A stretch of DNA of 64,000 bases, from the IMG/VR virus record IMGVR_UViG_3300028591_000158, positions 21,044 through 85,043 of that record; one strand, written 5' to 3'. Shown here in pieces: positions 1-54,127 of the stretch. This stretch comes from a virus. Lineage: Duplodnaviria; Caudoviricetes. Numbering within the stretch: the stretch's first letter is position 1; every line of letters starts with the position of its first letter. The notes beneath the pieces are model-generated. The model worked only from the letters and a program-made list of their open reading frames with translations, made no database searches and was not told where the DNA came from. The translations under genes and the position numbers were made by a program.

Positions 1-1
1 T

Positions 2-484
2 ATTATTAATTGGCAGTATATATTAAGAGAATCTACTGAAGATGAAGTTGAAATGGCTTTTGCTAAAGCGAAAGAATTAGAAGTAGATAATTTATTTTTT
101 AAATTAACTTGGGAAAAAAGTTATGTTCCAAAAGATCCTGAAAGATTAAAAGATTTAACTGGACTTCAGGCTCTTACAAGAAATGAATTTAAAGAAAAAA
201 CAGGTAAACTATATAAGATGGAAAGATGCAAACAATTATTTGACTGCCCGACAATAAATTGGAATGGTGAATTGTTAGGCTGTTGCTCCAACAAGCACAC
301 ATTTGGAGTTAATGTTTTTGAAGTTGGTTTAGAAAATGCTTTAAATTTTTCAACATTTATGGATTCAAAAAATTGAGTTTTAAATATGTCTACTGATTTA
401 GATAATAATAATCCTTGTGCAAATTGTAAGCAGTATAAAAAAATAAAAGATTTTTTACAACCTAACACTATTATCAAAAAATAA
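2..484 (+). CDS. Radical SAM/SPASM protein, C-terminal part (5' end outside window)
   Basis: Reads through TGA at 374-376 to TAA 482-484. Clear paralog of 8719-9687 (WQYI.RESTE, CKQLFDCPTINWNGELLGCC, C-terminal CANC). Confidence 0.85.
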
Positions 485-494
485 GGAGTAAAAT

Positions 495-1628
495 ATGCAA
501 ATTGATTATGATAAACTTAATAAAGTTAATAATCAAAGCAATAGAAAAATAAGATTCATTACCATATTTTCATTAGATCTAGAAGATCATTTTTCACAAC
601 CTTTACATCAAATGTGTCTTGATAGTTGATATGAATGAAAAAATAATAATAAACAAATAAAAAATATTATTATTTTTAATGAAGATAGTCAAGAATATAA
701 AGATTTTTTAACTATATTTTTAAGTAACCCTTATAATAGAACTAACACAATACCGCGTAGATTGGCAAATGGGTTTAGAATGTACATTTTATCTAAATAT
801 AAAAATTATCTATGATTAGATAGTGATATGTATATAAACGACGTTAATTTTGAATGAAAAGCTGACATGTTATTTAGTGGTATATCTTGAAATATAGCTT
901 TTAATGGTGATCAATTAGACTTTTTCAAGGATATTTTTAATTTATTTTTAACTGAAAATTTAGGAACTTTAATTGATTGAGAAATTAGTTTAAAATACAA
1001 TTTACCATTTATATCATTTAATAAATTATTACACAATAATTGTTTTACTCATCTTTCCAAGTTTGATTTAGGACGTAGATGTTTTAGTATAAGTTATAAT
1101 GAAAATAATTCTAAAGAGATTATAAAATGTTATAATAATATAAAAAAAGCAGAAAATGAATACTATGAACATTTTAATTCTGATAAATCATGATACTTTA
1201 AATTTATTTATTATAAAATGCGTAACTTAATTAAACATATAAGTTTTATAACATCGGTTGTCCTAGAAAATTATGATAATTTTTATTTACGTTATATGCC
1301 AGATGACTTAAAAAACAAACTAAGGTTATTACAAATAAAATATCCTGATAAATACCAATATAAATTAGAATATTTAAATTCAGAATTATCCTGAATAAAT
1401 AGAAACATTAATACTATTAATTTTTTAGGTAATATGCTAGATAATAGGCAAGATATGTCTGATGATAGTATTATTTATAATTTTTTAAAATACATTAATT
1501 CACCATTAGCAAATCTCTTAGAAAATAAATATATTACAATTTCTGAAACAAAATATATTTTAAATGTGGGAGAGCTTACAGGTGAAGAATTAATAACAAA
1601 ACTTACTATATTTTTTATAGATAATTAA
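495..1628 (+). CDS. GT-A fold glycosyltransferase, GT32/OCH1-like
   Basis: RBS AAGGAG, ATG 495, open to TAA 1628 with 8 in-frame TGA. RMYILSKYKNYLWLDSDM resembles the GT32 R..ILY..GG.YLD.D motif. Confidence 0.65.
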
Positions 1629-1647
1629 AAAGAAAGGAGATTTAAAC

Positions 1648-2688
1648 ATGAAATTAACATACATATTGCCTACATGTGAACCTGATTCAATGTTTAAATT
1701 CCTTTTACCGACTATTTACTTACTAAAACCAATAAAACACTTATTAGAATTTAATATATGTTTTCAACCGCCCTATACTAAAAATGATATTAAAAAAGTA
1801 TTAGATGAATTTAAAAAATGTCACATAAAAGTTAATTATATGTTTAAAGATTATAAAGTTGTAAAACCTTATACTCCTTTAATTAAAATGAGAAATGATT
1901 GTGCTATGATGAGCCCTAATTCAGATATATATGGATTAATTGATGATGATATGTCTTTTGAAGACAAATCTATTTGTGGTTATATAAGAGATATGATTAA
2001 TAGATTTGAAACTGAGTCTAGCTTAGCAGCTATATCTTTTTATAATCAACCTGAAATGAATTATAGAGAAAATTTTTATTCAACTAATGCAGGTTTATTT
2101 TATAGGGGCGGTAAATACTATGGTTTTAAAGGCTTACTGCCAAAATATATAACTGAATTTAATAAAAAAGTTAATTTAAAAGTTCCTTATAATAATGAAA
2201 ACTTATTACGGTTGTTTGGCGGGCATCAAGATAAATTTTGTGCTATGACCAGACTTGCAACAGGTGATTATGGAGATTGTATAATTAATGTACCAGTAAA
2301 TCACTTAGAAAATAGAATTGCTCGTGGCGATAAAGCACATGGCTGAAAAGATGCTGAAATTTTAGAAGGATCAATAGCAAGCTTTATTGTAAAATATTTT
2401 AATAGTAGATTTATGGAAACACATGCTTTAACTTTATTTGATAAAGAAGAAGATGAATTAATTTATCCTTATAAATATGAAAATCATATTTTAAAAGAAG
2501 AGTATGATTTATATGATGATAGGGGTATTATTAAAGATTGGTTTAGCTCATTTAATATTAATTGAAAAGATAAAAGATTTATTAATAAATATAATTATTT
2601 AGAAAATATTGGTTTATTAGTTGAGCTACCAAAAGATCTTCAAGAGTTATTAGCTAATAAAGTAAATGAAATTTATAGTAAAGAGTAG
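1648..2688 (+). CDS. GT2-like glycosyltransferase
   Basis: N-terminal LTYILPT strand and GLIDDDM DxD motif. Reads through 2 TGA to TAG 2686-2688. Confidence 0.65.
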
Positions 2689-2696
2689 GAGTTATT

Positions 2697-3899
2697 ATGA
2701 TTGTAAATAGAGAGTATGATATATTTCTAATAACTAAAGATAACTGAAGAGAGCAAGAAAATTTATTTTTTGGATATAAGACAGTTGATAATGAAGGTAT
2801 GTGATTAGATGTTAAAAATATAAAAAATAAATTAATTATTACTGGAAGTTATATTCAACCTGCTATTGCTATCTATAATCAAAATAATTTCTGAGCAATT
2901 TCAAATAGTTGTAAGGTATTGGTAGATTATTTAACTGAAAATAATTACACTTTAACTAATAATGATGAATATATAGAACAAGATTTAGGCTTAGATGGAT
3001 ATGCTTTTAATTATCCTGAAATAAGTACTAAATGAAAAGAAATAAATTTAAATCCTAATTTTTCTCATATAGAAATCAGTAATGATAGTTTATATGTAAT
3101 AGAAGAAAAAGATAAAGAAAATTTATTGTTTAGCAAAGATTTAAAAGATGGCAAAGAAATAATAGATGAATGATTTAAAAAGTATTATTTTTATATATTT
3201 AAGGAATCAAGTAAAGATAATACTTATATAACTGCCTCAGTTTCTGGAGGCTTAGATAGTAGATTCTTAATTAATTTTTGAAAGAATGCTAAGATAAATA
3301 AAATTGTTTCTAAATGAGCTAAAAATGATACTGAGACAGGAAATCGAAGATATATTGACGGTCTAATTGCTAGGCTAGTAATATCAACTTATACTTCACA
3401 TAAAAGTAAAATAAATGCTAAACTTAGAACTGTTAATTTAGGAAAAACTACTATTCCAGAAATAGAGGATGAATTATTTTGGTATGGTATTGCTTATAAA
3501 CCTAATGAACAAATAACCATCAAGAAGGTAGATAAAAATTCAAATATAAAAACAACAATTTTGAGCCTTTCGGGTGTTGGCACTGAATGATTAAAAGCTG
3601 GTGCGGGTTGTAAAGATCCTAATTTTATTCTAGGTACAGCTAGAAGATTTTTTATTTCAAAATTTATTAAGGGATATTATTTAGGTAAATTGGCAACAAT
3701 ATTGCCTTACTTGGATTCAAGTTTATTACAACTAAGAGGTGTTGAAGATAATAGTTTTCTTTACTTATTATATTTGTTATATAGCCCAGAAATGTTAGAA
3801 ATTCCATTCTATAATAATACTCAAATATATGTGCCAATAGAAGCAGAATTGGAAAAAGCAAGGCTAATTTTAAGGGAGTGGAATAATGAAGGTATATAA
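2697..3899 (+). CDS. Asparagine-synthetase-like ATP pyrophosphatase, paralog 1
   Basis: SVSGGLDSR PP-loop. 8 in-frame TGA. N-terminal DIF..FFGYKTV..EG.WL motif shared with 3886 and 12722. Confidence 0.7.
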
Positions 3900-5034
3900 T
3901 GATATATTTTTTGTAATAGATACTAATAATTATAATGAAAATAAAAAAGATCTATTCTTTGGATATAAAACAGTAGAAAATGAAGGATTTTGATTGGCTG
4001 TAAAACATAGGCTAAGCAAAATTCATATTTATACTAGTTATATTTCACCAGTTATAATAATATATAAGAAAGATGATTATTGGGCTATAAGTAATAGTTG
4101 TTATTATTTAAATGAATTTTTAAAAGAAAAAGGAATTATTTTAGAAATTAATGAAAAATTTTTAGATTTAGAATCTAAGAAAAAAACTTCATTCAGCTAT
4201 GAATACTATAATGACATTTTATTATATAAAGATTTATTTATAAATAATAATGATGAAGAGATTGATATTATAAATGGTAAATTAACTTTAACAAAAAAAG
4301 ATTTTAAATTATTTGAAAAAGATATTAATTTAAACTTAGATATATTAAATAAGTGGTATGAAAAATATTACAATTATTTATTAAATAAAGATAATGTTAC
4401 TTTATCATTATCTGGCGGTTTAGGCAGTAGATTTTTATGGTATAATTTTTTAAGACAAAATAATAGCTGCAAATTATATTGCTATAATAATAAATCAAAT
4501 GTAACAGATTATTTAGACGGAAAATTAGCTAAGGAATTGATTAAGAAATATACTGATAAAAATTTACTAACTGTAGATAAAGAGCCTAACAGAAATGTAA
4601 AAACATTAGATTGTATAAATAACTTAGATATGAAAGAATTGAATCAATTTATTCTTGGTATCTCTTATAATCCAATGCTTTTAGTTAAGACTGAATGACT
4701 AAGAGTTGTAGGTACAGGTTCAAATATATTTAGGTATGAATTTCAAGACTTAAATTTTTTAAATGGAAATATCAGAAGAAACTGAGTAGCTTCATTTATT
4801 GCAAAACATTATTTAATTAATTGTGATCATATTACTCCATATATGGATTCTCTGCTATTACAATTAGATACAAAAGAACCTGACTATTTACATGTTATTT
4901 TATATTCATTATTTGCTAAAAGCTTATTAACTGATAATATACCATTTATTACTAAAAACAAAGTAGGTGAATATAAATTTCAAGAGTTTAGAAAAGAATT
5001 ATTTGAAAGATTTTCAAAAATAACTAATTTTTAA
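3886..5034 (+). CDS. Asparagine-synthetase-like protein, paralog 2 (PP-loop SGGLGSR)
   Basis: Joins track ORFs 3994-4698 and 4843-5034 in one frame through TGA. Paralogous motifs along the full length. Confidence 0.7.
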
Positions 5035-5044
5035 GAGGTAATTT

Positions 5045-6064
5045 ATGGCAATAGAATTTTATAAAATGAATAACATACTTTCAATTGAGCCTACTAAAGA
5101 TTATTTTATGATATGCTGACATATGACAGGCTGATGTAACTATCATTGCCATTATTGCATTGCAGAGCATTTGAGAACTAAGTGAATTGATGAAAATGTT
5201 ATAATAAAAAGAGCAATTAATTTAAATAATTTTATAAATAAAAATATTGATAAAAATAGAAAAATTGTTTATAAGCTATCTGGGGGGGAAGTTACATATT
5301 ATAACCTTCCTAAAATATTAGATAATATTCAAAGATTAGATAAAGTTATTGTTGCAACCAACTTATCTCAAAAGCTAGATTATTATTATGAGTTAGAAGA
5401 TTATTGTTTTAAAAGAAATATTCAATTAGTTTTATTATGTAGTTGGCATGATGAAAATAAAAATTTTGAAAATAAATTTATTGAATTAACAAATTGATGT
5501 CGAAGTAAGCCAAAGCAAAAATTTAATTATAAAGATCCGCAAGCCACAATTGTTGTTACAAAAAATTTTGATAAGACTAAGCTAAATAAGTTATTAGATA
5601 ATAATTTATGAAGGATAAGGCTAACTAGAGAACGTGATGCAAATCAAAAAAATGTTAGCTTAAGTAATGAAATGCTAGACTATGTATATGAGTATAATAG
5701 ATTGTATGATAGTAAAGCTATAACAAATGAAAAAAGCTTTTGTTACAAAGTTACTTATTCAAATGGAGAGCAAAAGTTTGCTTGCGCCTCCAATTTAACA
5801 AATTTTTTAGATTCCTCTGGTTTTATTCCAGATGGGTACTATTGCACGGCAGGTATTGACTCTATTGCAGTTCTTCCAAATGGAAATATTTCATTAGCAA
5901 GATGTGATTATTTAATTAATAATATCTTAGGGTCTATTGATAACTATGAAAATATTCAACTCCCAAAAGATGGCATAATATGTCACCTAAATGGTAACAG
6001 TTCTGAAAAAAATAAAAGATGTGATTTATGTGCAGGTACTAGACTATTCAAAAATAGGAGTTAA
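5045..6064 (+). CDS. Radical SAM protein with C-terminal Cys cluster (subfamily A)
   Basis: CNYHCHYC motif, LSGGEVTYY, C-terminal YC.AG and CxLC. TGA read as Trp. Confidence 0.9.
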
Positions 6065-6070
6065 ACTTTT

Positions 6071-7090
6071 ATGAGACTATATAAGAATAATGACATATTA
6101 GAAATAACTAATAAGACTAATTTTTTTAATATAACTTGGTATATAACAGGGTGGTGTAATTATCACTGTCCTTATTGTATAAATAGTAATATGAAATGTA
6201 GTTGAATAAGTGAAGAAATTATTCTTAATAGAGCCGAGAAATTAAATAACTTAATTAACGCCTTAAATATAGATAAACCAATATCTTTAAAATTACTTGG
6301 GGGTGAGGTAACCTACTATGATTTAATTGCAGTCTTAGATAAGATTAAAAAGCTTGCAAAAATTATATTAATAACTAATTTATCTCAGCCAATTAGTTAC
6401 TTTATTAATCTTGCTAGATACTTAGACTCAAGAGAAATAAAATTTATTTTAATTTGTAGTAAACATGAAGAAAATAATGAGTTTGATTCTAAATTTATAG
6501 CTTTAAATGATGAGCTAAAAAAGTTAAGAAAAGAAACAAACAGGAAATTTGCTTATTTTGAACCTCAGCTAAATATAGTGGTTGATAATAATTTTAATTG
6601 GAAGAGTCTCAGACTTTTTGAAGATGCTGGAATTAAAAAGATAAATCCTACTGTTATGAGAGATTTAAATGAAAAAAATTTAGATGTAACTATGGATACT
6701 TTACAGCATATAGACTATTATAAGCAAATACAGCTTGATTATTTTAAGCATAGTAAAGATACTAGTAAAGGTAATAAAGAGATAAATTATTCCTTTGATG
6801 TTAAGTTTAATACTAATACAGAAGAATTTACTTCATTACTTAATTTAACTAATTTTATTGATGCTAATGGATTTATTGGTACTGGCTATAATTGCTCATG
6901 TGGTATTAATACTCTTGCCATTTTACCAAATGGTAATATAGTAAAATCTAACTGTTTATATTTAGCTGATAAACCACTTGGAAATATCGATGATAATATT
7001 GACATAAAGCTAGATAATGAATTAGTTAAATGTAAACTTAAGCCAGAGCAGCGCTGTATCCTAGTAAGTGGAGCAAATATCTGTAAATAG
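6071..7090 (+). CDS. Radical SAM protein (subfamily A)
   Basis: WYITGWCNYHCPYC, LLGGEVTYY, YNCSCG and C-terminal Cys. Confidence 0.9.
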
Positions 7091-7108
7091 CTATGAAAGG
7101 ATTTTGAT

Positions 7109-8695
7109 ATGAAGATATTATGTTATAATATATCGCATGAATCAGCTTGAATGTATCATGATACAGAAACAAAAGAATTATATTTTTTTAGTGCTGAACG
7201 TGAATATAATACAAAAGATGCAACTATAAGAGAAACAGACCCAATTAAAATCGCAGAAATGAAATTTGGTTTTGATAAGAAAAATCCAGAGCACATTTTA
7301 GTTGGTTGAGTTAATTATTGAGGAACTTTCGTCGATAAAGAAAAGGCAAATATTCCTGAAACAAAATTATATAAAAAAATCAAAGATAATGTATTTGTTA
7401 TAGATCATCATTTTGCGCATATCTTATCAAGCGTTGCTTTTAATAACTCTTTAAATCAAGGTATTGCAATAGACGGTCAAGGTGATCATAAACATACTGG
7501 GTTAGTTGTCAAGAATATTCACGATTTAAACAATTTACAATTTAATTATCTTCCTAATGACCCTCCAATAGGAAAATTATTTAATATATTCTCAGCTGAT
7601 TTAATTAAAAGTAAATATATGACTACAACTGATGAATTAACTGATCGACATCGAGCTGTTGGAAAAATTATGGGATTACAAGCTTATGGAAAAATAAATC
7701 AAAGTATTTATAATAAATTAGAAAGTTTTGAATTTAGTCTAAATAATTTAAATCAATTTAAAAATTATTTTAGTGAGATATTTTCTAATATAAATGTTTA
7801 TGATGAAAATCAAAATTTTGATGCTGTAACTACCTTATATCAATTTTTAACAAATAAAATTGTTGAAATTTTTAATAATAATTTTAAAGCTGGTGATAAT
7901 ATTGCTTATTCTGGTGGTTGTGCATTAAGTACAGTGGCTAATGATAAACTAATAAAAAATGGATATAATCTAACTATATGTCCTGCAGCTGGAGATATGG
8001 GATTATGTATTGGTATGTTAAAATTTATAGATTTATATTATAATTTAAATATAGATTTTTCAAATTTAAAATATGCATATTATAATGATGAACCAAATAT
8101 TATAATACCAGAAAAAAATATTAAATTTGCAGCTAAATTATTACAACAGAATGAGATAATAGCATTTGTTAATGGGGCTGCTGAAGTAGGTCCTAGAGCA
8201 TTAGGTCATAGATCTATATTAATGAATCCTTCTATTGAAAATGGCAAAGATTTTATTAATGAAAGAGTTAAACATAGAGAATGATGAAGACCATTCGGTG
8301 GATCAACAATTGATACTAAAATTATTAAGAATTACATTCCATCGAATTTAGATTTCTTTATGTTAAGAAATTATGAGATAAAGGACGAATGACAAACTAA
8401 ATTAAAGAGCATTTGTCACAAAGATAATTCATGTAGATTACAGATAATTGAAGATAAGTTAGAACCTTTATACCAAGTAATAAATGAATTTAACAACTTA
8501 ACAGGTGTTCCTGTTGTATTAAATACATCATTTAATATTGCTGGCAGACCAATTCCTAATTATAAAAAACATATTATGGAAACATTTAAGGCATTAGATG
8601 GAATAAAATATCTTTTTTATAATGATAAAATATATAAGAAAGAAAATATTTCTAAATATGGCGGAGTAATAGATATTGTTGAAGTACAATTATAA
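7109..8695 (+). CDS. NodU/CmcH/TobZ-family carbamoyltransferase
   Basis: SHES, ER, DHHFAH, IDGQGD, GKIMGLQAYG, SGGCALS, PAAGDMG, EVGPRALGHRSIL, HREWWRPFG (both W are TGA), LNTSFNIAG. Confidence 0.93.
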
Positions 8696-8718
8696 GTAAA
8701 TTGAGGCAGTGCATTATT

Positions 8719-9687
8719 ATGAAATATATGATTAGATTAGACATATGTACACTATGTACTTTAAATTGTGTAGCATGTCCTATTAGAAAAATAAACTATG
8801 GTAAATTAAAAGCTGGATATGTTAAATTTGAAATATTTAAAAAATTTATTGATGAAAATTTAGAATTAATACGAAAGATTGAAATATCAAGTGCTGGAGA
8901 ACCTTTATTAAATCCGGACTTGATTAAAATTTTAAAATATGCTTATGAAAATAATATTGTAATTACTTGTAGAAATGGAACTAATTTTAATTCATTAGAT
9001 GATGCCAAAATTAAGGCTTTAGTTGACTATAAGGTAGAGGATATTGTATTCGCGTGTGATGGGGCAACACAGGAAACATATCAAAAATATCGAAGAAATG
9101 GTGATATTAATAAGGTATTTGATTCAGTTAGAAAAATACAAGAATATAAGAAAAAAATTAATTCAGAATATCCTAGATTAATTTGACAATACATTATTAG
9201 AGAATCAACTGAAAGTAAAGAAGAAATTGAGTTGGCTAAAAAGTTAGCAAAGGAATTTAATGTTGAACTTAAATTCAAACTTACACACGAAATTAATTAC
9301 ACACCAAAAAATTCGCAAGAATTGAAGGAAATAACTGGATTAAAATATGTTACTAGAAAAGAAGCAGCTGATAATGGAGAATATTATTTAACAGCTTCAA
9401 AATGTAGACAATTATGGAATTCACCAGCTATAAATTGAAATGGAGATTTATTGGGATGCTGCTGAAATTGAGAACCATTTAATATAAATGTATTTGAAGT
9501 TGGATTAGCAGAGGCTCTAAAAAATAAAGAATACTGTAAAGCAAAAATGTATCTGAGCGATAAAATTGAAAATGATAAATCTATACCATGCATGAATTGT
9601 GAGTTTGGAGAAATTGTTCATAATAATCATTTAATTGATGATTGTTGAATTAAAACTCATGATCCACATTATAATAAGGAAAATTAA
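8719..9687 (+). CDS. Radical SAM/SPASM protein (subfamily B)
   Basis: CTLNCVACP, GEPLLNP, ACDG.TQETYQKYR.NG, SPASM-type CRQLW..P.INWNG.LLGCC. Stop TAA 9685-9687. Confidence 0.9.
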
Positions 9688-9690
9688 ATT

Positions 9691-10482
9691 ATGAAAAAAG
9701 ATATTAATAGATTGATTATAAATGAAACAGAAAATAAACCAATTTTAAATTATATAGAAACAAATATTGTTATGCATTGTAATTTAAATTGCAGAGGTTG
9801 TAATCATTTTGCTCCGTTATATTCTGAAAATGAAGATATGATTGATTTTGATAGATGAACCAAAGCTGTTGATCGAATAGCTGAAATGTTTGAAATTAAA
9901 AAATTTGGTATTTTAGGTGGTGAACCTTTACTTCATCCAAGATGACTAGATTTTTTAAGATATTTGCGAAATAAACTACCTAATGCTTTATTAACATTTA
10001 GAACAAATGGTATTTTAAGCAATCTATTAGTAGCAAATAAAAAAGAACTAGAAGACTTAAAAGTAGAATTAGTTATAAGTGATTACAACTTAAGCTTAAA
10101 TATTGACAAATCACTTTTTAATAGAACATTCGACAGAATAAAAACAAAATTTGAACACCCTTCTATAGATTCTGAAGGAAATCAAAGTAAAACAGACAGT
10201 TGATTACAGTGTAGAAATAAGCATTGTTTAGCTTTAACTGAAGATTATATCTATTGTTGTAATTATGGTCTGTCTTTTAACAAATTAAATGAATATTTTG
10301 ATTTAAAAATAGATATAAATGATGATGTAAAAATTAATATATTTAATTCAAGTGCAAATGATATAATTAAATGAACAAGACACGCTAAAGATTGTTGTAA
10401 ATATTGTAATTTAAATAATAGAAAATATGATCAAGAATGAGGATTAAGTAAAAAAGAAAAATCTGAATGAATTATTAATTAG
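9691..10482 (+). CDS. Radical SAM protein (subfamily C)
   Basis: HCNLNCRGCNHF, ILGGEPLLHP, TNG, C-terminal CCKYC. Stop TAG 10480-10482. Confidence 0.9.
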
Positions 10483-10492
10483 AGGTAATATT

Positions 10493-11521
10493 ATGTTTAA
10501 AAGTTCTGATATAGTTGCTATAATTAAAGATCAAAATAACGCAATGTTTGATTTAAGCTGAAAATTAACTTCGTGGTGTAATTATAACTGCTCTTATTGT
10601 AGTCAAGAAACAAGACAAAAAAAATTTAATTCACAGCCTATATTAGAAGCACGGGCAAAGAATATAGATAAAATTATTAATCAGTTATCAAACAAAAAAG
10701 CAATTCAATTATCTTTAATTGGTGGAGAGATTACTTATTATAATTTAATAGATATTTTAAAAAATATAAATTTATCTAAAATTTTTAAAATAAGACTTAC
10801 TACTAATTTCAGCCAAGATAACAATTATTTTATAGAACTTTTAGATTTTTTATATAAACAGAATAATAATTTAAAAATTACTCTCACTTTATCATTTCAT
10901 GATGAATATATACCATTATCATCATTTTTAAATAAAGTTGTTAAACTTCATGAAAGTATACAGACTAAATATAATAATAAATCTAAAGTTAAACTCAATG
11001 TATCATTAGTAATAAATAACGAGTTAGACTGTACTTTATTAAAACAATTTATTACTAATTATCCTAAATTAACTATTTGTCCTAACATACAACGTGATAT
11101 AAATGGAAAGATTGTTGATCTAGATAAAGAGCATATGGAATTTAAAACTAACTTAACCACTAAAGAAAATTTTAAAACTAATAAAATACTACTAATATTA
11201 AAATCAAATAAACATATTTATTTTTCTGATACTAGTACTATTCTTAATAATATAGATGAAAAAGTGTTTATATCAAAAGGCTACTTATGTAGTGCTGGTT
11301 TAAATAATCTTAGAATTGATGAAAATGGTAACATTCGAAGAGGACAGTGTCCATTAGAATTAAGCAAAAATATAGTAGGAAATATAGATAATGATAAAAA
11401 TATTATATTACCAACTGAACCAATTAAATGTTCTTTCGAAAATAGTAGCATTAAATCAGGATGTATTCTATGCCCTTGGGTAAATATTAAAATTGATACT
11501 GAGGAAGGCATAAAACCATAA
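10493..11521 (+). CDS. Radical SAM protein (subfamily A)
   Basis: WKLTSWCNYNCSYC, LIGGEITYY, YLCSAG, CILC. Confidence 0.9.
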
Positions 11522-11635
11522 TGAAAAAAAAATAAAAGAAATTAAAAATAAATTAATAGTTAAGTGTCAGTAAGATAGCTGTCCTTTTTGTGGTATAATC
11601 CATATCTGAAAATAGAAATGGGGTTGTAAAATAAA

Positions 11636-12649
11636 GTGTATAAACAAGATGACATTAAATCTATAAATTTAATAAATAATGATTTTTTTGTAATTAAATG
11701 ATTTGTAACAAATTGGTGTAATTACAGTTGTTCATATTGTATTCAAAATCCCAGAGATAAAGCCGGCTGAATTTCAGAAAATAAAGTAATAGAAATTGCT
11801 AAAAAGTTAAATGAAGCCCTTTATAACTCTAATATTACAAAAAGAATTTCTTTACAAATATTAGGTGGAGAAGTAACATTTTATAATTGATCAAAAATAT
11901 TACCTTATATAGAAAATGTTGGTAAAGTATTTATAACTACCAACTTTTCAAATACTTTAGAATATTATAAAGGTTTATATACTTATTGTTATTCTAATAA
12001 TATTGTCTTAAAATTATTATGTAGCTATCATGAAACAGGAGATGAGTTTTTTACTAAATTTATAGAATTAAAACATTGGTGTGCAGATAATAAATATCAC
12101 CTTCCTAATCTATCTTTTGTAGTGGGAAATGATTTTGATTTTACTATATTTGATAGATTTCCTGAGATAGCAAATAAAAGAGCTAGTATGTGCCCCTTAG
12201 TTCTCCCCGATCAAAGTACAGTAAAATTAAATGAAGGGGTAATAACTAAAATCAAAGAGATTAAAAGTAGAAAAGCAAATAATAGTAAACAAGAATTAAA
12301 AACTAGAGCTGAAAAATTTATTTTTAAAATTAATGATGACTTTATTGTTTGTAGTGCTCCAGAATTATTTGTAAATTTAGAAAAGGGTTATTTAGATATT
12401 AAAAAAGTATATTGTGATGCAGGCATTAATTCTATTAGTATTGATCCTGATGGTAGTATTACACGATGTGGTAATAATTCGCAATTACTTGGTAATTTAT
12501 TAACAATGGAGAATCCTAAGTTTAATTTAAAATCAAGTATCTGCGAAGATAAACAATGTAGATTGTGCCAACCTGTAAATATATGTAGAGTCATTGATTC
12601 AACCGATGATCCATTTATAAGGAGGGATAGGACATGCCCAAAGAAGTAA
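11636..12649 (+). CDS. Radical SAM protein (subfamily A)
   Basis: GTG start after GGGGT. WFVTNWCNYSCSYC, ILGGEVTFY, YCDAG, CRLC. Confidence 0.88.
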
Positions 12650-12732
12650 TTACAATAAAAGCTAATCCTGGTAATGATAAATCTTTTAAAGATAATCATA
12701 TAGAAAGAGAGAAAGATACTAATGAATTATAA
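12634..12732 (+). CDS. 32-aa small ORF (MPKEVITIKANPGNDKSFKDNHIEREKDTNEL)
   Basis: Strong RBS GGAGGGA. Overlaps the upstream stop and the downstream start, as expected for translational coupling. Confidence 0.5.
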   Translation: MPKEVITIKANPGNDKSFKDNHIEREKDTNEL

Positions 12733-13891
12733 AGATTTTGATATATTCTTAATCACAAAAGATAATTGAAAAAGTCAAGATGAAGTTTTTTATGGCTATA
12801 AGACTTTAGATGACAATGGGCTTTGATTAAAAGTATTTTGAGAGGATAGTTGCTTATTAATTAAGGGCAGTTATATTCAGCCTTATATTAGTATTTATCA
12901 ATCAGATGATTACTGGGCTATTTCTAATAATTTTTATTGTTTAGAACAACATTTAATTAGTAAGAATATTAAGCTTACTAAAAATAAAGCATTTGAAGAA
13001 TGGGACAAAGATTCTTTTAGGTTCTGTATTCAAGCAAGTCCAACAGAAACTTTATATAATGAAATTAAATTTAATGATAATTTTTCTTATTTAAAAATAT
13101 TAGATGGTAATTTAGAAATTATAAACTTGGAAATAGATTGCTTTACAAAACCTTTAGAGGATTCAAAAGAAGATTTATTAAATTGATATAAAAAATATTA
13201 TGATTATTTGCATACTTTACCCGAAGGTACTGTATCAGCCCAACTATCTGGCGGATTTGATTCAAGAATATTACTACCATTGTATGAAGATATAAATGGA
13301 GTCAGTATAAACGCACAGTGGAATAAAGAAGATGATGATAGTTATCGTGATGGATTAGCCGCAAGATTATATATTGCAAAAAAATATCCGCACTTATTTG
13401 ATAATTTACTTTCAAAAGAAGATAAAACTTGAGTTGCTAATAATGATAAGGCTAAACAAGAAAATGCAAAATTAATAACGCAATTTATCACTTATGGTTC
13501 ATATCCTATAAAAGGTGAGCTAGACTTATCAAATATGATGCCTTGTAAATCAACTAGTGGTAAAATAAGCTTAGCTGGAATGTCTCTTGAATTACATAAA
13601 AATAATCTAGCTAATAGCGTGCAAGAAATTGAAACAACTACAAGAAGATATTTTGTAAATAGATATTTAATTAGATATTATAGATCAAAACAAAGAGTAG
13701 TATGTCCTTTTCAAGATAAGGAATTATTAAAGATTAAAGGTTGTCGTGATTTAACATTTGTTTATATATTATTAGGATTATTTAATATTAACGATGAAAA
13801 ATTACCATATTATACTTATTTAAATAGTAAACCAGTTTTAAAGTTTGTTTCAAATGAAGAGATAGAAGAGGCGTTATCTTTATTAAAATAA
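12722..13891 (+). CDS. Asparagine-synthetase-like ATP pyrophosphatase, paralog 3
   Basis: LSGGFDSR PP-loop. Joins track ORFs 13208 and 13535 through TGA. Same N-terminal motif as paralogs 1 and 2. Confidence 0.7.
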
Positions 13892-13920
13892 AAGAGGTTA
13901 AAAATAACACCTCTTTTTTA
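13891..13920 (+). terminator. Rho-independent terminator closing the modification island
   Basis: AAAGAGGT...ACCTCTTT stem followed by a T-tract. Confidence 0.75.
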
Positions 13921-13921
13921 T

Positions 13922-13929
13922 TGTATATT
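13922..13929 (+). promoter_or_regulatory. Sigma70-like -10 class TGTATA(A/T)T, representative copy
   Basis: Same or near-identical octamer at 14132, 15097, 22314, 26149, 29847, 30782, 32622, 38541, 42923, 44614 and 54677. Each is shortly upstream of a gene start, often just after a terminator. Confidence 0.65.
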
Positions 13930-13956
13930 TAATATAATATTTTAGGGGGATCTACT

Positions 13957-14112
13957 ATGGAAAAAGAATCAGTGCTTGGTGTTGAAGAATTGTTAAATTT
14001 TTTAGAAAATAAGCCAGAAGAATTTAAAGCTATTTGGTTAAAATATTTAGAAGATACTGCTTATGAATATAATGATGAAGTAATAGAATTAATGGCAAGT
14101 AAATTAAATTAA
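13957..14112 (+). CDS. Hypothetical protein, 51 aa
   Basis: RBS GGGGGA, ATG, open to TAA. Confidence 0.6.
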   Translation: MEKESVLGVEELLNFLENKPEEFKAIWLKYLEDTAYEYNDEVIELMASKLN

Positions 14113-20796: not shown

Positions 20797-21291
20797 ATGA
20801 GAAATTTTAAAATAATTACAACTTTAAATATCGTTCCAACTAAAAAATTAACTAAATATTGGTATAAAGTTACTAGAGGTACTAGTACTAATTTTATGTT
20901 TGATTTAGTTGATAGAGCTTATAATTTCGAAGATATAGTACAATTATCTTATAGATTTGTTAGTAAAACTGGACAAATGATTCATTATGATATGTATATT
21001 TATAATTATTTAAAAGATGGTACTATTGAAGCTATCTTTAATGATGAATATTTTGAGCATGTTAAAGGTTATTCTACTGATTTAGAGCAAGAAATACCTT
21101 ATGAGTATGTTAATTTAAAGCTAACAGGTAATGATACTAATGAATTCTGGCTTGCTAATAAAGATAATCCATTAAACTTTGAAGTAGCTGTTACTATAAA
21201 TAATAATGTAAATAAAGATACTGAAAATAACTATACATATATTGAAAAACAATTGCCAGTTATTGTATTAGATAGCAGAGGAGTGAATTAG
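20797..21291 (+). CDS. Hypothetical, probable virion protein
   Basis: Intact ORF. Ig-like VTRGTSTNF pattern similar to the next gene. Confidence 0.55.
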   Translation: MRNFKIITTLNIVPTKKLTKYWYKVTRGTSTNFMFDLVDRAYNFEDIVQLSYRFVSKTGQMIHYDMYIYNYLKDGTIEAIFNDEYFEHVKGYSTDLEQEIPYEYVNLKLTGNDTNEFWLANKDNPLNFEVAVTINNNVNKDTENNYTYIEKQLPVIVLDSRGVN

Positions 21292-30824: not shown

Positions 30825-32576
30825 ATGCAAAGTCTTTTCGGAGATGAATTTAATATTGATTTTAATAAACCAAAAGCTAAAGAATTAGCTAGTAAAGCAA
30901 GAGTAACAGCTGGCTCTGAAGAATACGACCCAATGAAAATTCTTAAAAGTAAAAAAGTTTCATTGGAAGACCAACTCTTAGTAATTAAAGAACAAGTCAT
31001 TAGGGTCTTAGGAAAACAACGTAAAAATATTGTTGTTATCAGAAGTCTTAATGACTTTTCTGACTATATAACAGCTTGTATAGAGTCTGGCTATATTTCA
31101 GTAGATACTGAAACTAATAACTCACTTGATCCAGTTACTTGTAAACTAATGGGTCTCTGTCTATATTATCCTGGTGGTAAGCAAGCCTATATTCCAGTAA
31201 ATCATAAAGATCCAAAAACAAAAGAAAAGTTATCAAATCAAATAACTGAAAAACAAATAAAAGAGCAATTACAAAGAGTAAAAGATGCAAAAACATTTGT
31301 AGTAATGCATAATGCTAAGTTTGATTTTAGTGTTATAAAGTGTACTTGTAATATTGAATTATTAGCAGATTGGGATACTTCTATTGCAGCTGCTTTAATT
31401 GATGAGAATGAAGAAAAAGGATTAAAAAAGCAATATATATTACATATTGATCCTTCACAACAAAAGTATAGTATTGAAGGATTATTTGCTCATATTCCTT
31501 ATGCTTATGTTGATCCAGAAATATTTGCATTATATGCTGCAACAGACTCATTAATGACTTTTAGATTATTTAAAGAATATCAAGAACCTATTTTATTAGC
31601 TGAGGATAATAAGAAAGTTAAATGGGTATTTGATAATATTGAAATGCCATTAGTTGAAGTTACAGCTAAAATGGAATTAAAAGGTGTATGTGTTGATCAA
31701 GCATTAGGAAAAAGACTTGAAGATAAATATAATGCTAAACTTGCAATTGTGGATAAAAATATTGCAGAAGAGCTAGATAAATTACAAGATAGAATAGTTA
31801 AGTGGAAGTTAACTAAAGATGCCAATGACGTTACTAAGAGATATGTACCTAAGAAATCAAAATTATCAAAAGAAGCTTTAGAGAAAAGATATCCATTAGT
31901 TGATAATGATGGTAAGCGTTATGCAGTTGGAAAGTCTAAGGCATCACAATTAACTGACCCAATTAATCTAGCTTCACCAGTACAAATGGCTATCTTATTT
32001 TACGATATTTTAAAAGCTCCTATAGTTAATAAAAAATCACCTAGAGGAACAGGTGAAGAAGAAATTAAGGCAATTGATGAAAAAATGAATATTCCATTAT
32101 GCAAGCTATTATTAAAACGTAGAGGATTAGTTAAAATTTTAACTACTTATATCACAACAATACCAACTCTTGTTGAACATTGGCCTGATAAAAGAATTAG
32201 ATTCCATCTTGATCAAACAGGTACTGCGACAGGCAGATATTCATCTGGAGGAAAATTAAAGTTTATGGACGAGACTACAGATGAACCAATAGAAGTGTCG
32301 GGTATTAATATTCAAAATATTCCTTCACACGAAAAAAGTATAAGACAATTATTCATTGCTGACTGTAAATATGATACTGTTGAAGCTGAAAATAATGAAA
32401 TTTCAATTCCAGAATATACAGAAATTGAAACTGTAAATGGATATAAATATCCAATAGACTTAACTGATGCTGATATCATTGTTGGCGAAGATACAAATAC
32501 AAATTATAAAATAAATAAAATATTATTAGATAACAAAATATATTATATAAATTTAACTCCGTTTAACTCTAATTAA
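30825..32576 (+). CDS. polA: Family A DNA polymerase, N-terminal part (3'-5' exonuclease, thumb, start of palm)
   Basis: VDTETN, HNAKFD, YAATD, IEMPL..V...ME..G, TATGRYSS, NIQNIP...IRQLFIA. Ends in an unrelated ~63-aa tail. Confidence 0.92.
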   Translation: MQSLFGDEFNIDFNKPKAKELASKARVTAGSEEYDPMKILKSKKVSLEDQLLVIKEQVIRVLGKQRKNIVVIRSLNDFSDYITACIESGYISVDTETNNSLDPVTCKLMGLCLYYPGGKQAYIPVNHKDPKTKEKLSNQITEKQIKEQLQRVKDAKTFVVMHNAKFDFSVIKCTCNIELLADWDTSIAAALIDENEEKGLKKQYILHIDPSQQKYSIEGLFAHIPYAYVDPEIFALYAATDSLMTFRLFKEYQEPILLAEDNKKVKWVFDNIEMPLVEVTAKMELKGVCVDQALGKRLEDKYNAKLAIVDKNIAEELDKLQDRIVKWKLTKDANDVTKRYVPKKSKLSKEALEKRYPLVDNDGKRYAVGKSKASQLTDPINLASPVQMAILFYDILKAPIVNKKSPRGTGEEEIKAIDEKMNIPLCKLLLKRRGLVKILTTYITTIPTLVEHWPDKRIRFHLDQTGTATGRYSSGGKLKFMDETTDEPIEVSGINIQNIPSHEKSIRQLFIADCKYDTVEAENNEISIPEYTEIETVNGYKYPIDLTDADIIVGEDTNTNYKINKILLDNKIYYINLTPFNSN

Positions 32577-32671
32577 CTCTAATTAATAGCCTAATTAGCT
32601 TATAACTAGTTGATAATTAACTGTATAATATAAAAAGTCTATATGACAAGAAAGGACGGTGGTGCCACGCT

Positions 32672-33856
32672 ATGAGCAAAATAAAAACTAGAACAAGATA
32701 TAAAATTGTTGGTTCAGATTATTCTGCTCAGGAATAGCCTGAGCCACGATTAGCCGCATATATGTCTCAAGATCCAGAAATGAAAAAAGTTTATTTTGAA
32801 GGTAAAGATTTATATGCTAGAATTGCTCAGTCAGCATTTAACAATGATTATGCTGATAATCTAGAATTTTATCCAGAAGGAACTGAGCTTGAAATTGATG
32901 GTAAAAAAGTAATAGCTGGTAAAAAAACTCATAAAAATCCTGAGGGAAAAAGTCGACGTTCTGTTGGAAAAACATTACTTTTAGCAGCAAATTATGGCAT
33001 GGGACCTAAGACTGCTGGTGAAAAAATGGGTAAATCTGCTAAAGAAGGTGGTGAACTACTAGAGAGCTTTTTCAAAGGCTTTCCAGTTTTAAAACAAACT
33101 ATTGAAGAATCAAAAGTATTCTTAAAAAAGAATGGCTATGTTGAAGATGCATTTGGTAGACGTAGGCATATTCCAGAAATCAATGAAAAGCCGTATGATG
33201 CAAGGTATGCTGATGAGAAAAAAGTTGAAGAATTAACTTTTAATCCATTTTTAAATTGTAATAATAGAACTTTTACAGATGATAAATTAAATAAATATAT
33301 TACACTTGCAAAAAACACTAGAAATAATGAAGACTTTGATAAATTAGCTAGAGAGGCTGATCGAGATGGAATTATATTAACAGCTAACACTGGTAGAATA
33401 GCCCAAGCTGAAAGACAATGTTTTAATGCAAGAATTCAGGGTTCAGCAGCTTCACTTACTAAGCTAGCAATGGTTAATATATTTAATGATGCATTATTAA
33501 AAGAATATAAAGCTGACTTAATTATTTCAGTACATGATGAAGTATTAGTTGAGTGCCCAGATTATTATGCTGACAAAGTTGAAGAACGTTTGCCAAAAAT
33601 TATGATTGATACAGCTAAGCCATATATTGATATTCCGATGAGTTGTGACCCTTATAATGTTACCCGTTGGTATAGTGATGAAATGGCTGCACAGCTAAGA
33701 GAAGAACTAGATAAAATGGAAAAAGGTGATCCAGATAAAAATATACCACCAATTGCACATGATATTGCAGTTCAAAATATTTATAAAGATCATTGTGAAA
33801 TTCCAAAAGAAGCTATAGACAAATGTTTAGCAAGTAATGATGATTTAGAGTTTTAA
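32672..33856 (+). CDS. polA: Family A DNA polymerase, C-terminal part, with in-frame TAG at 32735-32737 inside motif A
   Basis: MSKIKTRTRYKIVGSDYSAQE*PEPRLAAYMSQD, motif B RSVGKTLLLAANYGM, NARIQGSAA, motif C VHDE. Confidence 0.88.
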
Positions 33857-43543: not shown

Positions 43544-43549
43544 TTAATA

Positions 43550-44593
43550 ATGGCAAATAAAGTTTTAATTTTCAGTGATGTGCATTGGAGCACAACATCA
43601 AGCGTTATTAAAAAAAGAGGTACAAAATATTCAACTAGATTAGAACATTTAATTAACAGCATGAACTGAGTAAATAAACTTGCTGAAGATGAGGATTGCT
43701 CTTTTATGATCTGTGCTGGTGATATGATGGATCAAAGTGCTTGTAATGATGAAGAGATCACTGCAACACGTGAAATAGAATGAAATGATTTAAACTGCTA
43801 TTTCTTATGTGGAAACCATGAAAGTAGTGTAAATGATTTAAGTTTTAGTACAGTAAAATTATTTGAAGGTAAGAATCATTTTATTATTGATAATCCATAC
43901 TTATTAGAACCAAAAAATACTACAACACAAATTCATTTTATTCCATATATTGTAGAGTCCGATCGTACTGATTTAGCTAATTATTTAACTAATGTGGATA
44001 AGAGTAAAAAACAAGTAGTAATAAGTCATAATGATATTGCAGGTATTCAATACGGTGGATTTACAAGTAAGCTTGGCTTTAATATTACAGAAATTGAAAA
44101 TAATGTTGATTTATACTTAAATGGACATTTACATAATTCTGAATTTATAACTAAGAAAATCTTAAATGTCGGTAGTTTATCTGCCCATAATTTTACTAAT
44201 GATTCATTTAATTATAAATATGGAGCTTGAATTTTAGATTTAGACACACTTGAATTAAAATTCTTTGAAAATCCTTATGCTTTTAATTTTTATAAAATAG
44301 AAATAAATGATAGCAAAGATTTAAAAGTTTTAGATACACTTAAAGAAAGTGCTGTTGTAACTATTAAATATAATGAGGCTTTAGATAAAGAAGTTAAGCA
44401 ATTAGTACAGTTAAATAAAAATATTATATATTGTAGATATATAATTAAAAAAGATATAGTATCAACTAGTTTAATAGAATCAAATATATCTAATTTAACT
44501 GTTGATTATATTACCAAATTTGCTGAATTAGCTCTTGAAAAATTAGAAAATACACAAATATTGTCAGATGAACTTGCAATTATTTGTGCTTAA
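43550..44593 (+). CDS. sbcD: Mre11/SbcD-like nuclease
   Basis: SDVHW, AGDMMD, CGNHE, SHND, NGHLH, VGS. 3 internal TGA. Confidence 0.88.
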
Positions 44594-50984: not shown

Positions 50985-52863
50985 ATGGCAATTCAAATTA
51001 ATAAAGATACTAAAATATTAATACTTGTGGAGTCTCCCTAACAAGGTAAAAACTGTCCAATCTATTGTAAAAAAACTGGGTTATACTAAAACAATGGTTG
51101 CTGCAACAATAGGACATACAACTAGAATTAAAGATAATAAAAACAGCTATAAAAACTCAGGAATTCATCCAGATAATAATTTTAAAATTGACTGAGAAGT
51201 ATCACCTGATAAACAAAAAGTTATTGAAGAGTTAAAAGCTAAAGCAAAAGCTGTTGATTTAGTCCTAATTGCATCAGACCCCGATAGAGAGGGAGAATGT
51301 TTAGGTAATCAAGTCAAAAATGTATTAAAATTAAAAGATAGTCAATACTATAGAATTACTTATCATAGTGTAACTGAGACAGATATTAAAAAAGCACTTG
51401 AAAATCCAACAAAAATGAATTTAAAATTATGTGAAGCTGCCGAATCTCGTGCAGCAGTAGATAAACTTGTTGGTTATTCATTAAGTCCAATTGCTAGAAT
51501 GTATATTGGAGCAAAATCTGTTGGCAGATGTCAGTCAGCAGGGCTTAAATTAGTTGCAGATCGTGAAAAAGAGATAATTGATTTTAAACCAGAACAATAT
51601 TTTGATATTTATTTAAAATTTAGTAAGAATAATGCTAATTTTAAAGCAAAATATATTGGTACTGATAAAGAAAAAATTGATCATTTAAAAAATATAGATG
51701 ATGTTAATGCAGTTAAAATTGGTTGTGCTAAAAGTAAATTTATTGTAAAAGATGTTACTAAAAAAGAGAGACAAGAAAGTCCAAAGCCACCATTTTCTAC
51801 TATTACATTTCAACAAGAGGCAGCTAGTAAACTAAATTTAAAAATAAAAGATGCTATGTCATGTGCTCAAAAGTTATTTGAAGGTATAAATGTTAATGGT
51901 GAACATATCGGTTTAATAACTTATCACAGAACAGACTCAACTGATCTTGCAGAAGACTTTATACCAGTCTTAAAGAATTATATAACTGATACCTATGGTC
52001 AAAAATCTTTTGTAACACCTAGAATTGGTAAAAAAACTGGTGATGAACAAGAAGGACATGAGGCATTAAGAGTTGTAGACCCAAGCATGACTCCAGAAAA
52101 GCTTGCACAGTATTTACCAAATGATTTATATATAAAAGTATATAAGCTAATTTGGCAAAGAACTATTGCTTCAGCTCTTCCTAATGCTGTTTTCTCTGAA
52201 ACTATATATACTATATATAATAACATTTATAAATTTAGTATGACCTCAAATGAGCTAGTTTCAGCTGGTTTTAAGACTGTTTATAATTATTCAGACGATC
52301 AAGATGATGAAAATCAAGTTGTAAAAGAAAGCTTCAAAGAAAATGAAGAATTGCAAAATACTTTACTTGAAGATATTTCAAAAACAACTACACCACCTGC
52401 AAGATATACTGAAGCTAGCCTAGTTAATGCACTAAAAAAATATGGTATAGGTAGACCTTCTACTTTTGCTACAATAGTTGAAACAGTTCTAAGCCCAGTA
52501 AGAAACTATGCTACCTTAGATGGCAAGTCTATTGTACCAACAGATAAAGGAATGCAGCTTGCAGCATTTTTAGATAGATCATTTTCTAATATAATAAATT
52601 TAAACTATACAAAACAAATGGAAGATTCACTTGATGCTATTGCTAATGGTAAATTAGATCATCTTGAGTTCTTAAATGGCTTTTTTAAGGATTTAACAAC
52701 TACTATAAGCAATAATACAGAAACTGGCTTTGCAGAGACAGTAGCCCCTAAAAAGTGTCCTAAATGTGGAAGTGATTTAGTGGTTAGACGTAGTCGCTTT
52801 GGAACCCTATTTAGAGGCTGTAGTGGCTATCCTAAGTGTAATTACACAGAATCAGTTGAATAA
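50985..52863 (+). CDS. topA: Type IA DNA topoisomerase, needs a +1 frameshift at CCC-TAA (51036-51041)
   Basis: 0-frame ILILVESP*. +1 frame NKVKT..., GH, ASDPDREGE, SVGRCQS, ITYHRTDS, HEALR, GIGRPST, C-terminal zinc ribbon. Confidence 0.93.
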
Positions 52864-52933: not shown

Positions 52934-54127
52934 ATGCTATTGCCATCTGCGTATTTTGAAAACAATAGTTATTATAATAGCTATAAAATACTAATTAATA
53001 CAGCATTTGATTTAACCGTTCCAGTTGAAAAGCATCATATGATACCAGTATGTTACTATAAACAATTGTACCAGTGTAAAACACGAAAACAAGCGGAGAA
53101 ATATGCAAATAGTGATCCAGCTAATAAGCTAGTTGATTTGCCATTACCTCAGCATATTCTTGCACATTATTATTTGTGTAATTGCTGCATCAATAAAGAA
53201 CTAAAAGCTAGATTAATTAATGCTTTTTTAATGCTAGCCTCATTTAAACATAAATATACCTATTACTTATCAAAAAAAGATTCTGAGTTACTCAATGAAT
53301 TCAAGACCTACTGTGAAAAAAAATTACAAAATATTTACGGAAAGAAAGTAATATGTATTGAAACAGGTATTGAGTATGTAAATATATGTGCTGCTAATGA
53401 AGCTATGGGAAAAAATCGTTATAACTATACAGGTATTCATAATGTATGTTATAAAATTGATAACCAACAAACAGCATGTGGCTATCATTGATGTTTTAGT
53501 GATAATATACAAGCTGTGGCAGATTTAAAAAAATTATATTTTAAACAAAATCCAGTAAAGCTTAAAAATCAAGCAAAGCAAATATTTTGTCCTGAAACTG
53601 GCTTAATTTTTAGATCAGCTTATGAGGCAAGTATTAAAATGGGTGTGTATAGAGATGCTATTTTAGCTTGTTGTAAACACTATTGAAAAACAATAAATAC
53701 TTTTCATTTTTGTTTTTTAGAGGATAAAGATAAATTTAAGCCATTATCCAAACCAGTACGAAAACTAACAGCAGCTCAAAAACAATATATTGGGCAAAAA
53801 ACTAAAGAGGCTATGTCAAAGCTTACTGATGAACAAAAAGCTGCTATGAAACTTAAAGTATATCAAAGCTGACAACTCAAAGATGCGCACTACTATAATA
53901 ATGGTATTGAGGAGATAAGAGCTAAAGTATGCCCTGAAGGCTGAATGCCCGGTAGACTGGCTAAATATAAAACAAAAGGAAAACAAATTATTTGTATAGA
54001 ACTTAATCAAGTTTTTAGCTCAATTGTAGAAGCGAGTAAAACACTAAATATTAGCCATGGCAGTATCTCAAATTGTTTAAGCTGTAAAAGTAAAACTGCT
54101 GGTGGATATCATTGAAAATATTATTAG
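52934..54127 (+). mobile_element. Free-standing HNH homing endonuclease with repeated NUMOD1/IENR1-type modules
   Basis: EKHHMIP...L...H..AH, three V/I.C.E(T/L) modules and TA.GYHW endings. Several TGA read as Trp. Confidence 0.8.

Follow-up and report, generated by a model that had tools for sequence, protein, structure and literature searches.

A two-piece phage DNA polymerase gene with an interrupted motif A

We analysed a family A DNA polymerase gene in a 64,000-nucleotide (nt) stretch of phage DNA (the window), positions 21,044 to 85,043 of IMG/VR record IMGVR_UViG_3300028591_000158, in which nine extra bases with an in-frame stop codon interrupt catalytic motif A. The record comes from a sheep gut metagenome, is 85 kilobases (kb) long with 27% guanine plus cytosine, and its completeness is estimated at 38%. 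The polymerase is encoded as an N-fragment and a C-fragment (Table 1), and Pfam matches on both place them in family A. The N-fragment contains a 3′–5′ exonuclease (PF01612), the first part of the polymerase domain (PF00476 positions 19–152) and a family-specific tail of ~70 amino acids (aa). The C-fragment aligns through motifs B and C to Taq, Bst and Klenow polymerases (PDB matches), and through motif A to the DYS...E segment of Taq. Its ATG is preceded by a ribosome-binding site (32652–32665). Since the frame opens at this ATG, the catalytic Asp lies upstream of the stop, and a start at ATG 32762 would give a product without it, as had been pointed out in an original prediction made for this stretch.

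The codons of motif A read GAT (32717–32719), TAT, TCT, GCT, CAG, GAA (32732–32734), TAG (32735–32737), CCT, GAG (32741–32743), CCA, CGA and TTA. As the original prediction proposed, dropping nine bases restores the family motif: it gives DYSAQEPR, the motif of every uninterrupted homologue, where D-[YF]-S-A-Q-E-P-R, with zero residues between Glu and Pro, is found in ~150 cases. HMMER alignment to Taq polymerase likewise opens a three-residue gap opposite the insert. The boundaries of the gap can be moved by up to 3 nt with the product unchanged.

The stop codon lies in the loop of a perfect hairpin with a stem of 7 base pairs (bp), and the sequence, coordinates, 7-bp arms and 5-nt loop given in the original prediction were all exact. 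It is the sole perfect hairpin in the window with a stem of 7 bp or more and five or more G–C pairs, where 0.1 would be expected from shuffled sequences, and the local fold z-score is −3.8 (determined on the copy in a related locus, L003, whose hairpin is identical to that of the window). The hairpin thus exceeds chance. A longer imperfect helix is predicted across 32704–32751. The AGGA that the original prediction noted ahead of the GAG, a candidate for a Shine–Dalgarno-like element at the landing site, is where it was said to be (32730–32733, ending 7 nt before that codon); it is absent from relatives with other inserts. This lack of conservation, the two-piece structure of the polymerase and the reading of TGA as Trp in this phage (see below) had all gone unnoticed. 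The 21-residue nascent chain encoded ahead of the stop is basic, and the same residues are present in uninterrupted homologues.

Table 1. Features of the polymerase locus, in window coordinates.
Feature	Position	Strand	Basis
Polymerase N-fragment, 583 aa, ends with TAA	30825..32576	+	Open reading frame list, translation, Pfam
Spacer between the polymerase halves, 95 nt	32577..32671	+	Nucleotide alignment with related locus L004
Start of the C-fragment, 21 codons from ATG to the proposed take-off codon, catalytic Asp included	32672..32734	+	Protein conserved in relatives
Catalytic Asp codon GAT of motif A	32717-32719	+	
Perfect 7-bp hairpin with the stop codon in its 5-nt loop	32726..32744	+	Arms 32726-32732 and 32738-32744, loop 32733-32737
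Proposed take-off codon GAA (Glu of motif A)	32732..32734	+	Last sense codon before the stop
Proposed 9-nt coding gap: TAG (32735-32737), CCT, landing codon GAG (32741-32743)	32735..32743	+	
Rest of the C-fragment, from resume codon CCA (Pro of motif A) to TAA, with motifs B and C	32744..33856	+	Translation, PF00476, PDB matches

The insert is genuine

The original prediction had argued that such an insert would not easily arise by random error, and we find that it is not an error. The same nine bases, with an identical hairpin, are present in three other DNA samples: in two Joint Genome Institute metagenome contigs (L002 and L003), with a C-fragment 86% identical to that of the window and of which L002 ends within the hairpin, and in an IMG/VR contig (L011) with a polymerase of just 55% identity. 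The probable source sample, assembled independently in Logan, showed no differences over 32690–32870. In addition, another study's sheep-gut metatranscriptome (run X2) yielded a 439-nt contig that matched 32517–32955 with no differences and no gaps, and the dominant species in this RNA library therefore retains the insert and spans the spacer. The RNA evidence comes from contigs, which hide rare variants; runs X3 and X4 were covered only downstream of the site and are uninformative on the insert.

Run X2 also contained a variant contig (record 10; window 32499–32636) whose sequence departs from that of the window in the spacer and whose ribosome-binding region beyond is spelled differently, which indicates a co-occurring related strain.

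Inserts in related polymerase loci follow common rules

Protein searches returned ~600 homologues of the C-fragment, mostly 383-aa proteins on phage contigs of ~220 kb, together with fused full-length forms. A scan of viral contigs with the single protein found no relatives, and an alignment query was needed to find them; megablast of the polymerase region against deposited phage genomes gave no match. We collected 160 loci from viral and metagenome collections and 5 more via exact-protein look-ups, and classified ~145 loci by position relative to a fixed anchor.

The interruption is not private to the window: motif A is interrupted in 48 of the ~145 loci, by 29 distinct types of insert. The inserts are 4–14 nt long and are found after the Ser, Ala, Gln, Glu, Pro or Arg codon of the motif. 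Their length modulo 3 is 0, 1 and 2 in 7, 7 and 15 types, respectively (22 of 29 out of frame), and no single frame relation is preferred. An in-frame stop directly follows the last sense codon, which we call the take-off codon, in 28 types (TAG in 18, TAA in 6 and TGA in 4). The lone type with a sense codon at this place (L005) has CCG, which occurs 0.7 times per 1000 codons in the window's phage. Two close relatives, L004 and L007, have TGA and TAA, respectively, at the same position. GAA, as in the window, is the take-off codon in six types.

Past each insert, the downstream frame gives the exact family consensus, ahead of any start codon. The 3 nt before the codon at which this frame resumes (the landing codon) match the first two bases of the take-off codon in 23 of the 29 types and are identical to it in 8, including matches from Ser to Ser over 6, 7, 8, 12 or 14 nt and from Arg to Arg over 4 nt. 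At other registers (−4 to +6) the codons match in 0–3 of the 29 types (binomial p ~7e-23).

Hairpins with the stop in the loop also recur. The mean local folding free energy is −7.4 kcal/mol at interrupted loci versus −3.3 kcal/mol over the same span of uninterrupted genes. Among the cassettes with GAA before the stop (their mobile nature is described below), the stop stays in the loop of different stems, which measure 7 bp in the window and in L007, 6 bp in L109 and 5 bp in L004. Compared with L004, L007 has two synonymous changes that add two stem pairs. With inserts after Pro, TAA lies in a GNRA-like loop on a stem of 5 bp, and in inserts after Ser the 3′ end of the insert pairs with the Asp-Tyr codons. 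A stem-loop at the take-off site is thus frequent across the family, not universal; inserts of 5 nt are unable to form a hairpin, and the structure is therefore an aid rather than a requirement.

The inserts mark the 3′ edge of homing-endonuclease cassettes

In L004, a 255-aa GIY-YIG endonuclease gene lies between the polymerase halves; the ribosome-binding site lies within the last codons of this gene, whose stop codon overlaps the C-fragment's ATG. Positions 32643–32675 of the window align with the 3′ end of this gene, and this ~30-nt remnant supplies the ribosome-binding site; no intact endonuclease open reading frame (ORF) was found between the halves in the window. The alignment of the remnant argues that the endonuclease gene was once present in the window and was then lost. 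A promoter and terminator scan of the spacer gave no informative signal.

The association holds across the classified loci. An endonuclease gene at the site (GIY-YIG/NUMOD types and one different nuclease) occurs in 25 interrupted loci and in no uninterrupted one, fused genes number 0 and 68, respectively, and split genes without an endonuclease gene 23 and 26, with the caveat that the endonuclease queries were derived from interrupted loci. However, such a gene would not fit in most of the uninterrupted split loci, where no more than ~150 nt separate the end of the N-fragment from motif A.

In a tree of C-fragments, fused and plain split genes are interspersed with interrupted ones, with the same insert in distant polymerases and different inserts in near-identical ones. 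At the DNA level, a fused gene (L025) and one with a cassette (L026) are ~93% identical from the insert on, ~75% identical in the 20 preceding codons, where many of the differences are synonymous, and unrelated further upstream. Between the window and L011, a block of 35 nt with the insert at its centre is identical, against ~70% identity in the flanks. These patterns point to the insert as the 3′ edge of a mobile cassette and to the 20 codons before it as a cassette-borne replacement of host sequence.

According to the original prediction, the hop proposed at this site gates polymerase production. This idea was not upheld: the inserts co-occur perfectly with endonuclease cassettes and lie at their 3′ boundary, which argues for an origin in a selfish element rather than for a regulatory device. 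By analogy with the T4 MobA element, the insert probably destroys the endonuclease's own target and would thereby give immunity to it.

A second GIY-YIG site is found just before motif B (L039 [1486-1600], L041, L142 and L134). The inserts there also begin with a stop, TAG or TGA, and the matched codons run from Thr to Thr over 9 nt and from Leu to Leu over 12, 12 and 8 nt. The phenomenon therefore belongs to the cassettes and not to motif A.

At three loci (L048 (1–1368), L099 and L100), a different ORF of 456 aa occupies the same split site as in L004 and is followed by an interrupted motif A; it has weak matches to DUF7487 and to a restriction-endonuclease-like domain. Several unrelated nucleases would therefore use the site. 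Matches to the cassette's ribosome-binding motif at other places in the window were at chance level only.

Elsewhere in the window, the ORF at 52934–54124, just downstream of a type IA topoisomerase gene (51415–52863), has NUMOD1 and I-HmuI-like DNA-binding motifs and five TGA codons, and is a probable free-standing homing endonuclease.

A proposed translational hop and its alternatives

We consider it quite probable that the stop in the window is passed by a translational stop-hop from GAA to GAG over nine bases, laid out as in the T4 mobA/gene 60 element. The original prediction of a programmed 9-nt hop between matched Glu codons, with a stop in a stem-loop and a parallel in T4 gene 60, gains support from the 29 insert types. 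It also seems reasonably likely that rumen and gut jumbo phages hold a natural family of hops of 4–14 nt, at least 29 types at motif A and more before motif B, each being the 3′ end of a homing-endonuclease cassette in the only DNA polymerase gene of the phage.

Under this proposal, a homing-endonuclease cassette would have invaded the polymerase gene and split it ~20 codons before motif A. It would have brought its own stop, a ribosome-binding site, a start codon and its own version of the ~20 codons that open the downstream half, and would end in a short insert within the most conserved DNA of the gene, probably wrecking the endonuclease target. In the window, the endonuclease gene would later have been deleted, leaving its last ~30 nt. 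A ribosome that starts at ATG 32672 would arrive at GAA 32732 with TAG in the A site, and the stop would act as a pause. The peptidyl-tRNA-Glu could then unpair, the mRNA slip by 9 nt and the tRNA re-pair with GAG 32741, and decoding would resume at CCA to give a product with the canonical DYSAQEPRL. The hairpin that holds the stop in its loop may assist take-off or block the release factor.

Several points weigh against this proposal. The hop is deduced from sequence alone. The two-base match is missing in 6 of the 29 types; four of these still allow two of three base pairs, and the other two (L063 and L162) are essentially unmatched. In the window itself, GAA and GAG are synonymous, not identical, and the insert is in frame, so that its own sequence, taken alone, is compatible with readthrough. 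The RNA contig is single, of low depth (3.4x), and its library may hold DNA. The ratio of non-synonymous to synonymous substitution rates (dN/dS) of the C-fragment is 0.02–0.24 between pairs with a common insert, which is no strict proof of selection after insertion because cassettes move between lineages. With a record that is far from complete, the window's phage may also have a second polymerase. Finally, synthetic stop-hops and unprogrammed short hops in E. coli are reportedly inefficient.

If TAG 32735 were decoded instead, the polymerase would carry three extra residues (X-Pro-Glu) after the Glu of motif A. Such readthrough is unlikely. It would fit the in-frame insert of the window, and the phage already reassigns TGA to Trp and hence alters termination; however, it offers no rescue for the inserts of 5, 8 and 10 nt that close variants of the cassette carry after the same GAA and stop, nor for the other out-of-frame types, and none of the ~150 uninterrupted homologues has an extra residue between Glu and Pro. 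As the original prediction held, TAG is an ordinary stop elsewhere: it ends 19 of the 73 long ORFs in the window, no other gene was seen to be broken by an in-frame TAG in the ORF map with TGA as sense, and ORFs become hardly longer when TAG is taken as sense (code 15). Furthermore, tRNA scans found no tRNA genes in the window or in the 85-kb record, and hence no candidate suppressor. Conventional +1 or −1 frameshifting, with readthrough where the insert is in frame and with extra motif A residues tolerated, is very unlikely. Although a stop in the A site stimulates the +1 shift at prfB-type sites, there is no slippery overlap here: the take-off tRNA is unable to re-pair in the +1 or −1 frame, and its matched codon lies 4–14 nt downstream. 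Frameshifting would also need three mechanisms for one cassette family and would add one to four residues to an invariant motif. Removal of the insert from RNA before translation, by a micro-intron, editing or cleavage and ligation, seems more doubtful still; the hairpin could be a processing signal, and phages do encode RNA ligases and endoribonucleases, but all nine bases are kept in the RNA-library contig, inserts of 4–6 nt are too short for any known intron, Rfam gave no match either at gathering thresholds or at E-values up to 10, and removal from RNA would need neither an in-frame stop nor a landing codon in register. Group I or II introns and inteins were rejected on the empty Rfam result, the length of 9 nt, the retention of the insert in the RNA-library contig and the lack of a Pfam family for the N-fragment tail. 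The original prediction had ranked both readthrough and a micro-intron below a hop, and the rules of the family (all three frame relations, a stop at the head of nearly every insert and a matched codon at its end) support that ranking, as they exclude general readthrough and make micro-introns unnecessary.

It is also conceivable that the cassette inactivated the polymerase and that the phage relies on another polymerase or is defective. A stop inside a catalytic motif would suggest this, the phage-encoded clamp and clamp loader could serve another polymerase, and the record is incomplete. Decay of this kind is nevertheless improbable: both fragments are otherwise intact, dN/dS between carriers is low, the interruption persists in many diverged lineages and samples, and strict rules on stops and matched codons are not a product of decay. 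In two interrupted relatives, moreover, one of 221 kb (95% complete) and one of 223 kb that has terminal repeats, no gene other than the split one matches polymerase families A, B or C, and a gene drive that killed an essential gene could not spread. A three-piece enzyme is barely credible. Here the 21-residue peptide with the catalytic Asp would join, non-covalently, a C-fragment reinitiated at ATG 32762, as might be imagined for a polymerase that is already in two pieces and has an ATG 25 nt past the stop. But this ATG has no ribosome-binding site ahead of it, and the codons between the insert and the ATG are conserved as protein (from TAG to ATG 32762, the only differences between the window and L003 are two synonymous changes). 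Moreover, inserts after Ser or Ala leave the essential Gln-Glu-Pro-Arg past the stop with no start codon before it. Since the rival mechanisms fail on the rules of the family, we favour re-pairing of the P-site peptidyl-tRNA at a matched downstream codon, with a stop or hungry codon in the A site.

Other features of the phage

The N-fragment tail (32349–32573) comprises ~70 residues between a conserved IRxxF segment and motif A, and begins with Cys. It belongs to no Pfam family, and the sole hint of its nature is a weak SH3-like match (E 0.07). A split intein was considered, as the tail begins with Cys and is superficially Hint-like, and was ruled out: in fused relatives the same domain runs uninterrupted into motif A, an intein C-part is missing from the C-fragment, and there is no Pfam match to a Hint domain.

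On the + strand, the replication module of the window encodes a DnaB-type helicase and a primase, the family A DNA polymerase, a sliding clamp, RecA, a clamp loader, an SbcC-like ATPase and a type IA topoisomerase. These replication genes avoid TGA. In many other genes TGA is read as Trp, over window positions 1–14000 and at scattered places (for example, 7091–8692, 9688–10479, 43544–44590 and 52934–54124). When TGA is taken as sense, ORFs tile contiguously, and two adjacent TGA codons align to the conserved Trp-Trp of TobZ-type carbamoyltransferases. A tRNA scan of the 85-kb record found no suppressor tRNA. The pattern of TGA fits that of recoded gut phages (bioRxiv 10.1101/2021.08.26.457843).

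Significance and comparison with known systems

To our knowledge, T4 gene 60 is essentially the only case in bacteria or phages for which efficient programmed bypassing has been proven by experiment. If the hops proposed here take place, they would constitute a second, independently evolved bypass system, in which the in-frame 9-nt version of the window would be a natural stop-hop. Dozens of natural variants, differing in gap (4–14 nt), frame relation, stop, take-off codon and hairpin, would provide a ready mutational series for the minimal needs of a hop. It would follow that short hops by ordinary bacterial ribosomes can be efficient enough to supply an essential enzyme, and that selfish nucleases use the hop to immunize their own target sites. 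Homing endonucleases could then place immunity inserts even in catalytic motifs, since translation repairs them. There is also a consequence for annotation: gene callers start such polymerases at an internal ATG, as was seen in proteins found here, or call them pseudogenes. A full-text literature search found no paper that describes bypassing in polymerase genes.

The splitting of a phage gene by an endonuclease gene has a parallel in Aeromonas phage Aeh1, whose nrdA is reportedly split by mobE into pieces. There too, an inserted endonuclease gene leads to two separately translated fragments that must assemble; we know of no bypass insert described for nrdA/mobE. Mobile elements of T4-type phages are reviewed in PMC2988022.

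The closest parallel to the arrangement of codons is artificial. In synthetic stop-hops in E. coli (Weiss and co-workers), nine nucleotides encode one residue, and a 2016 recoding review knew of no natural in-frame stop-hop (PMC5009743). In both the synthetic and the present case a sense codon and a stop are followed by a matching codon 9 nt on, where the peptidyl-tRNA re-pairs or would re-pair, whereas the present case is natural, lies in an essential gene and includes a hairpin. A looser parallel is offered by the yeast Magnusiomyces capitatus, whose mitochondrial byp elements (Lang et al., cited in PMC5009743) are likewise numerous short mobile inserts in essential genes. Byps are 27–55 nt long, GC-rich, mitochondrial and unlinked to homing endonucleases, whereas the inserts in phage polymerase genes are shorter and confined to endonuclease target sites.

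The T4 MobA element consists of an endonuclease gene, a new start, a diverged replacement of host sequence and a bypass insert, and cassettes of the gene 60 type have been reported in topoisomerase genes only (Manning and Atkins, bioRxiv 10.1101/2022.08.31.505936). As in T4 gene 39/mobA/gene 60, a free-standing homing-endonuclease gene here splits an essential replication gene, and the downstream half begins with cassette sequence, including a diverged copy of the host sequence that the cassette replaces. The cassette ends, a few dozen codons after the start of that half, in a non-coding insert whose first codon, next to the take-off codon, is a stop or a rare one. The landing codon matches the take-off codon, the take-off site has a stem-loop, and the endonuclease has been lost from some copies. 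The two systems differ in the host gene, which is a topoisomerase in T4 and here a family A DNA polymerase with the insert inside a catalytic motif, and in the endonuclease, MobA in T4 and here GIY-YIG/NUMOD and at least one other type. They also differ in the length of the gap, 20–50 nt in the T4 type (50 nt in T4 itself; PMC5009743) and here 4–14 nt (9 nt in the window), which therefore has no room for the internal Shine–Dalgarno and AU-rich elements of the T4 gap. The cassettes have no sequence homology to that of T4, and bypassing has been proven experimentally for T4 only. The case in the window would thus work like gene 60 and is not a member of that system by descent.

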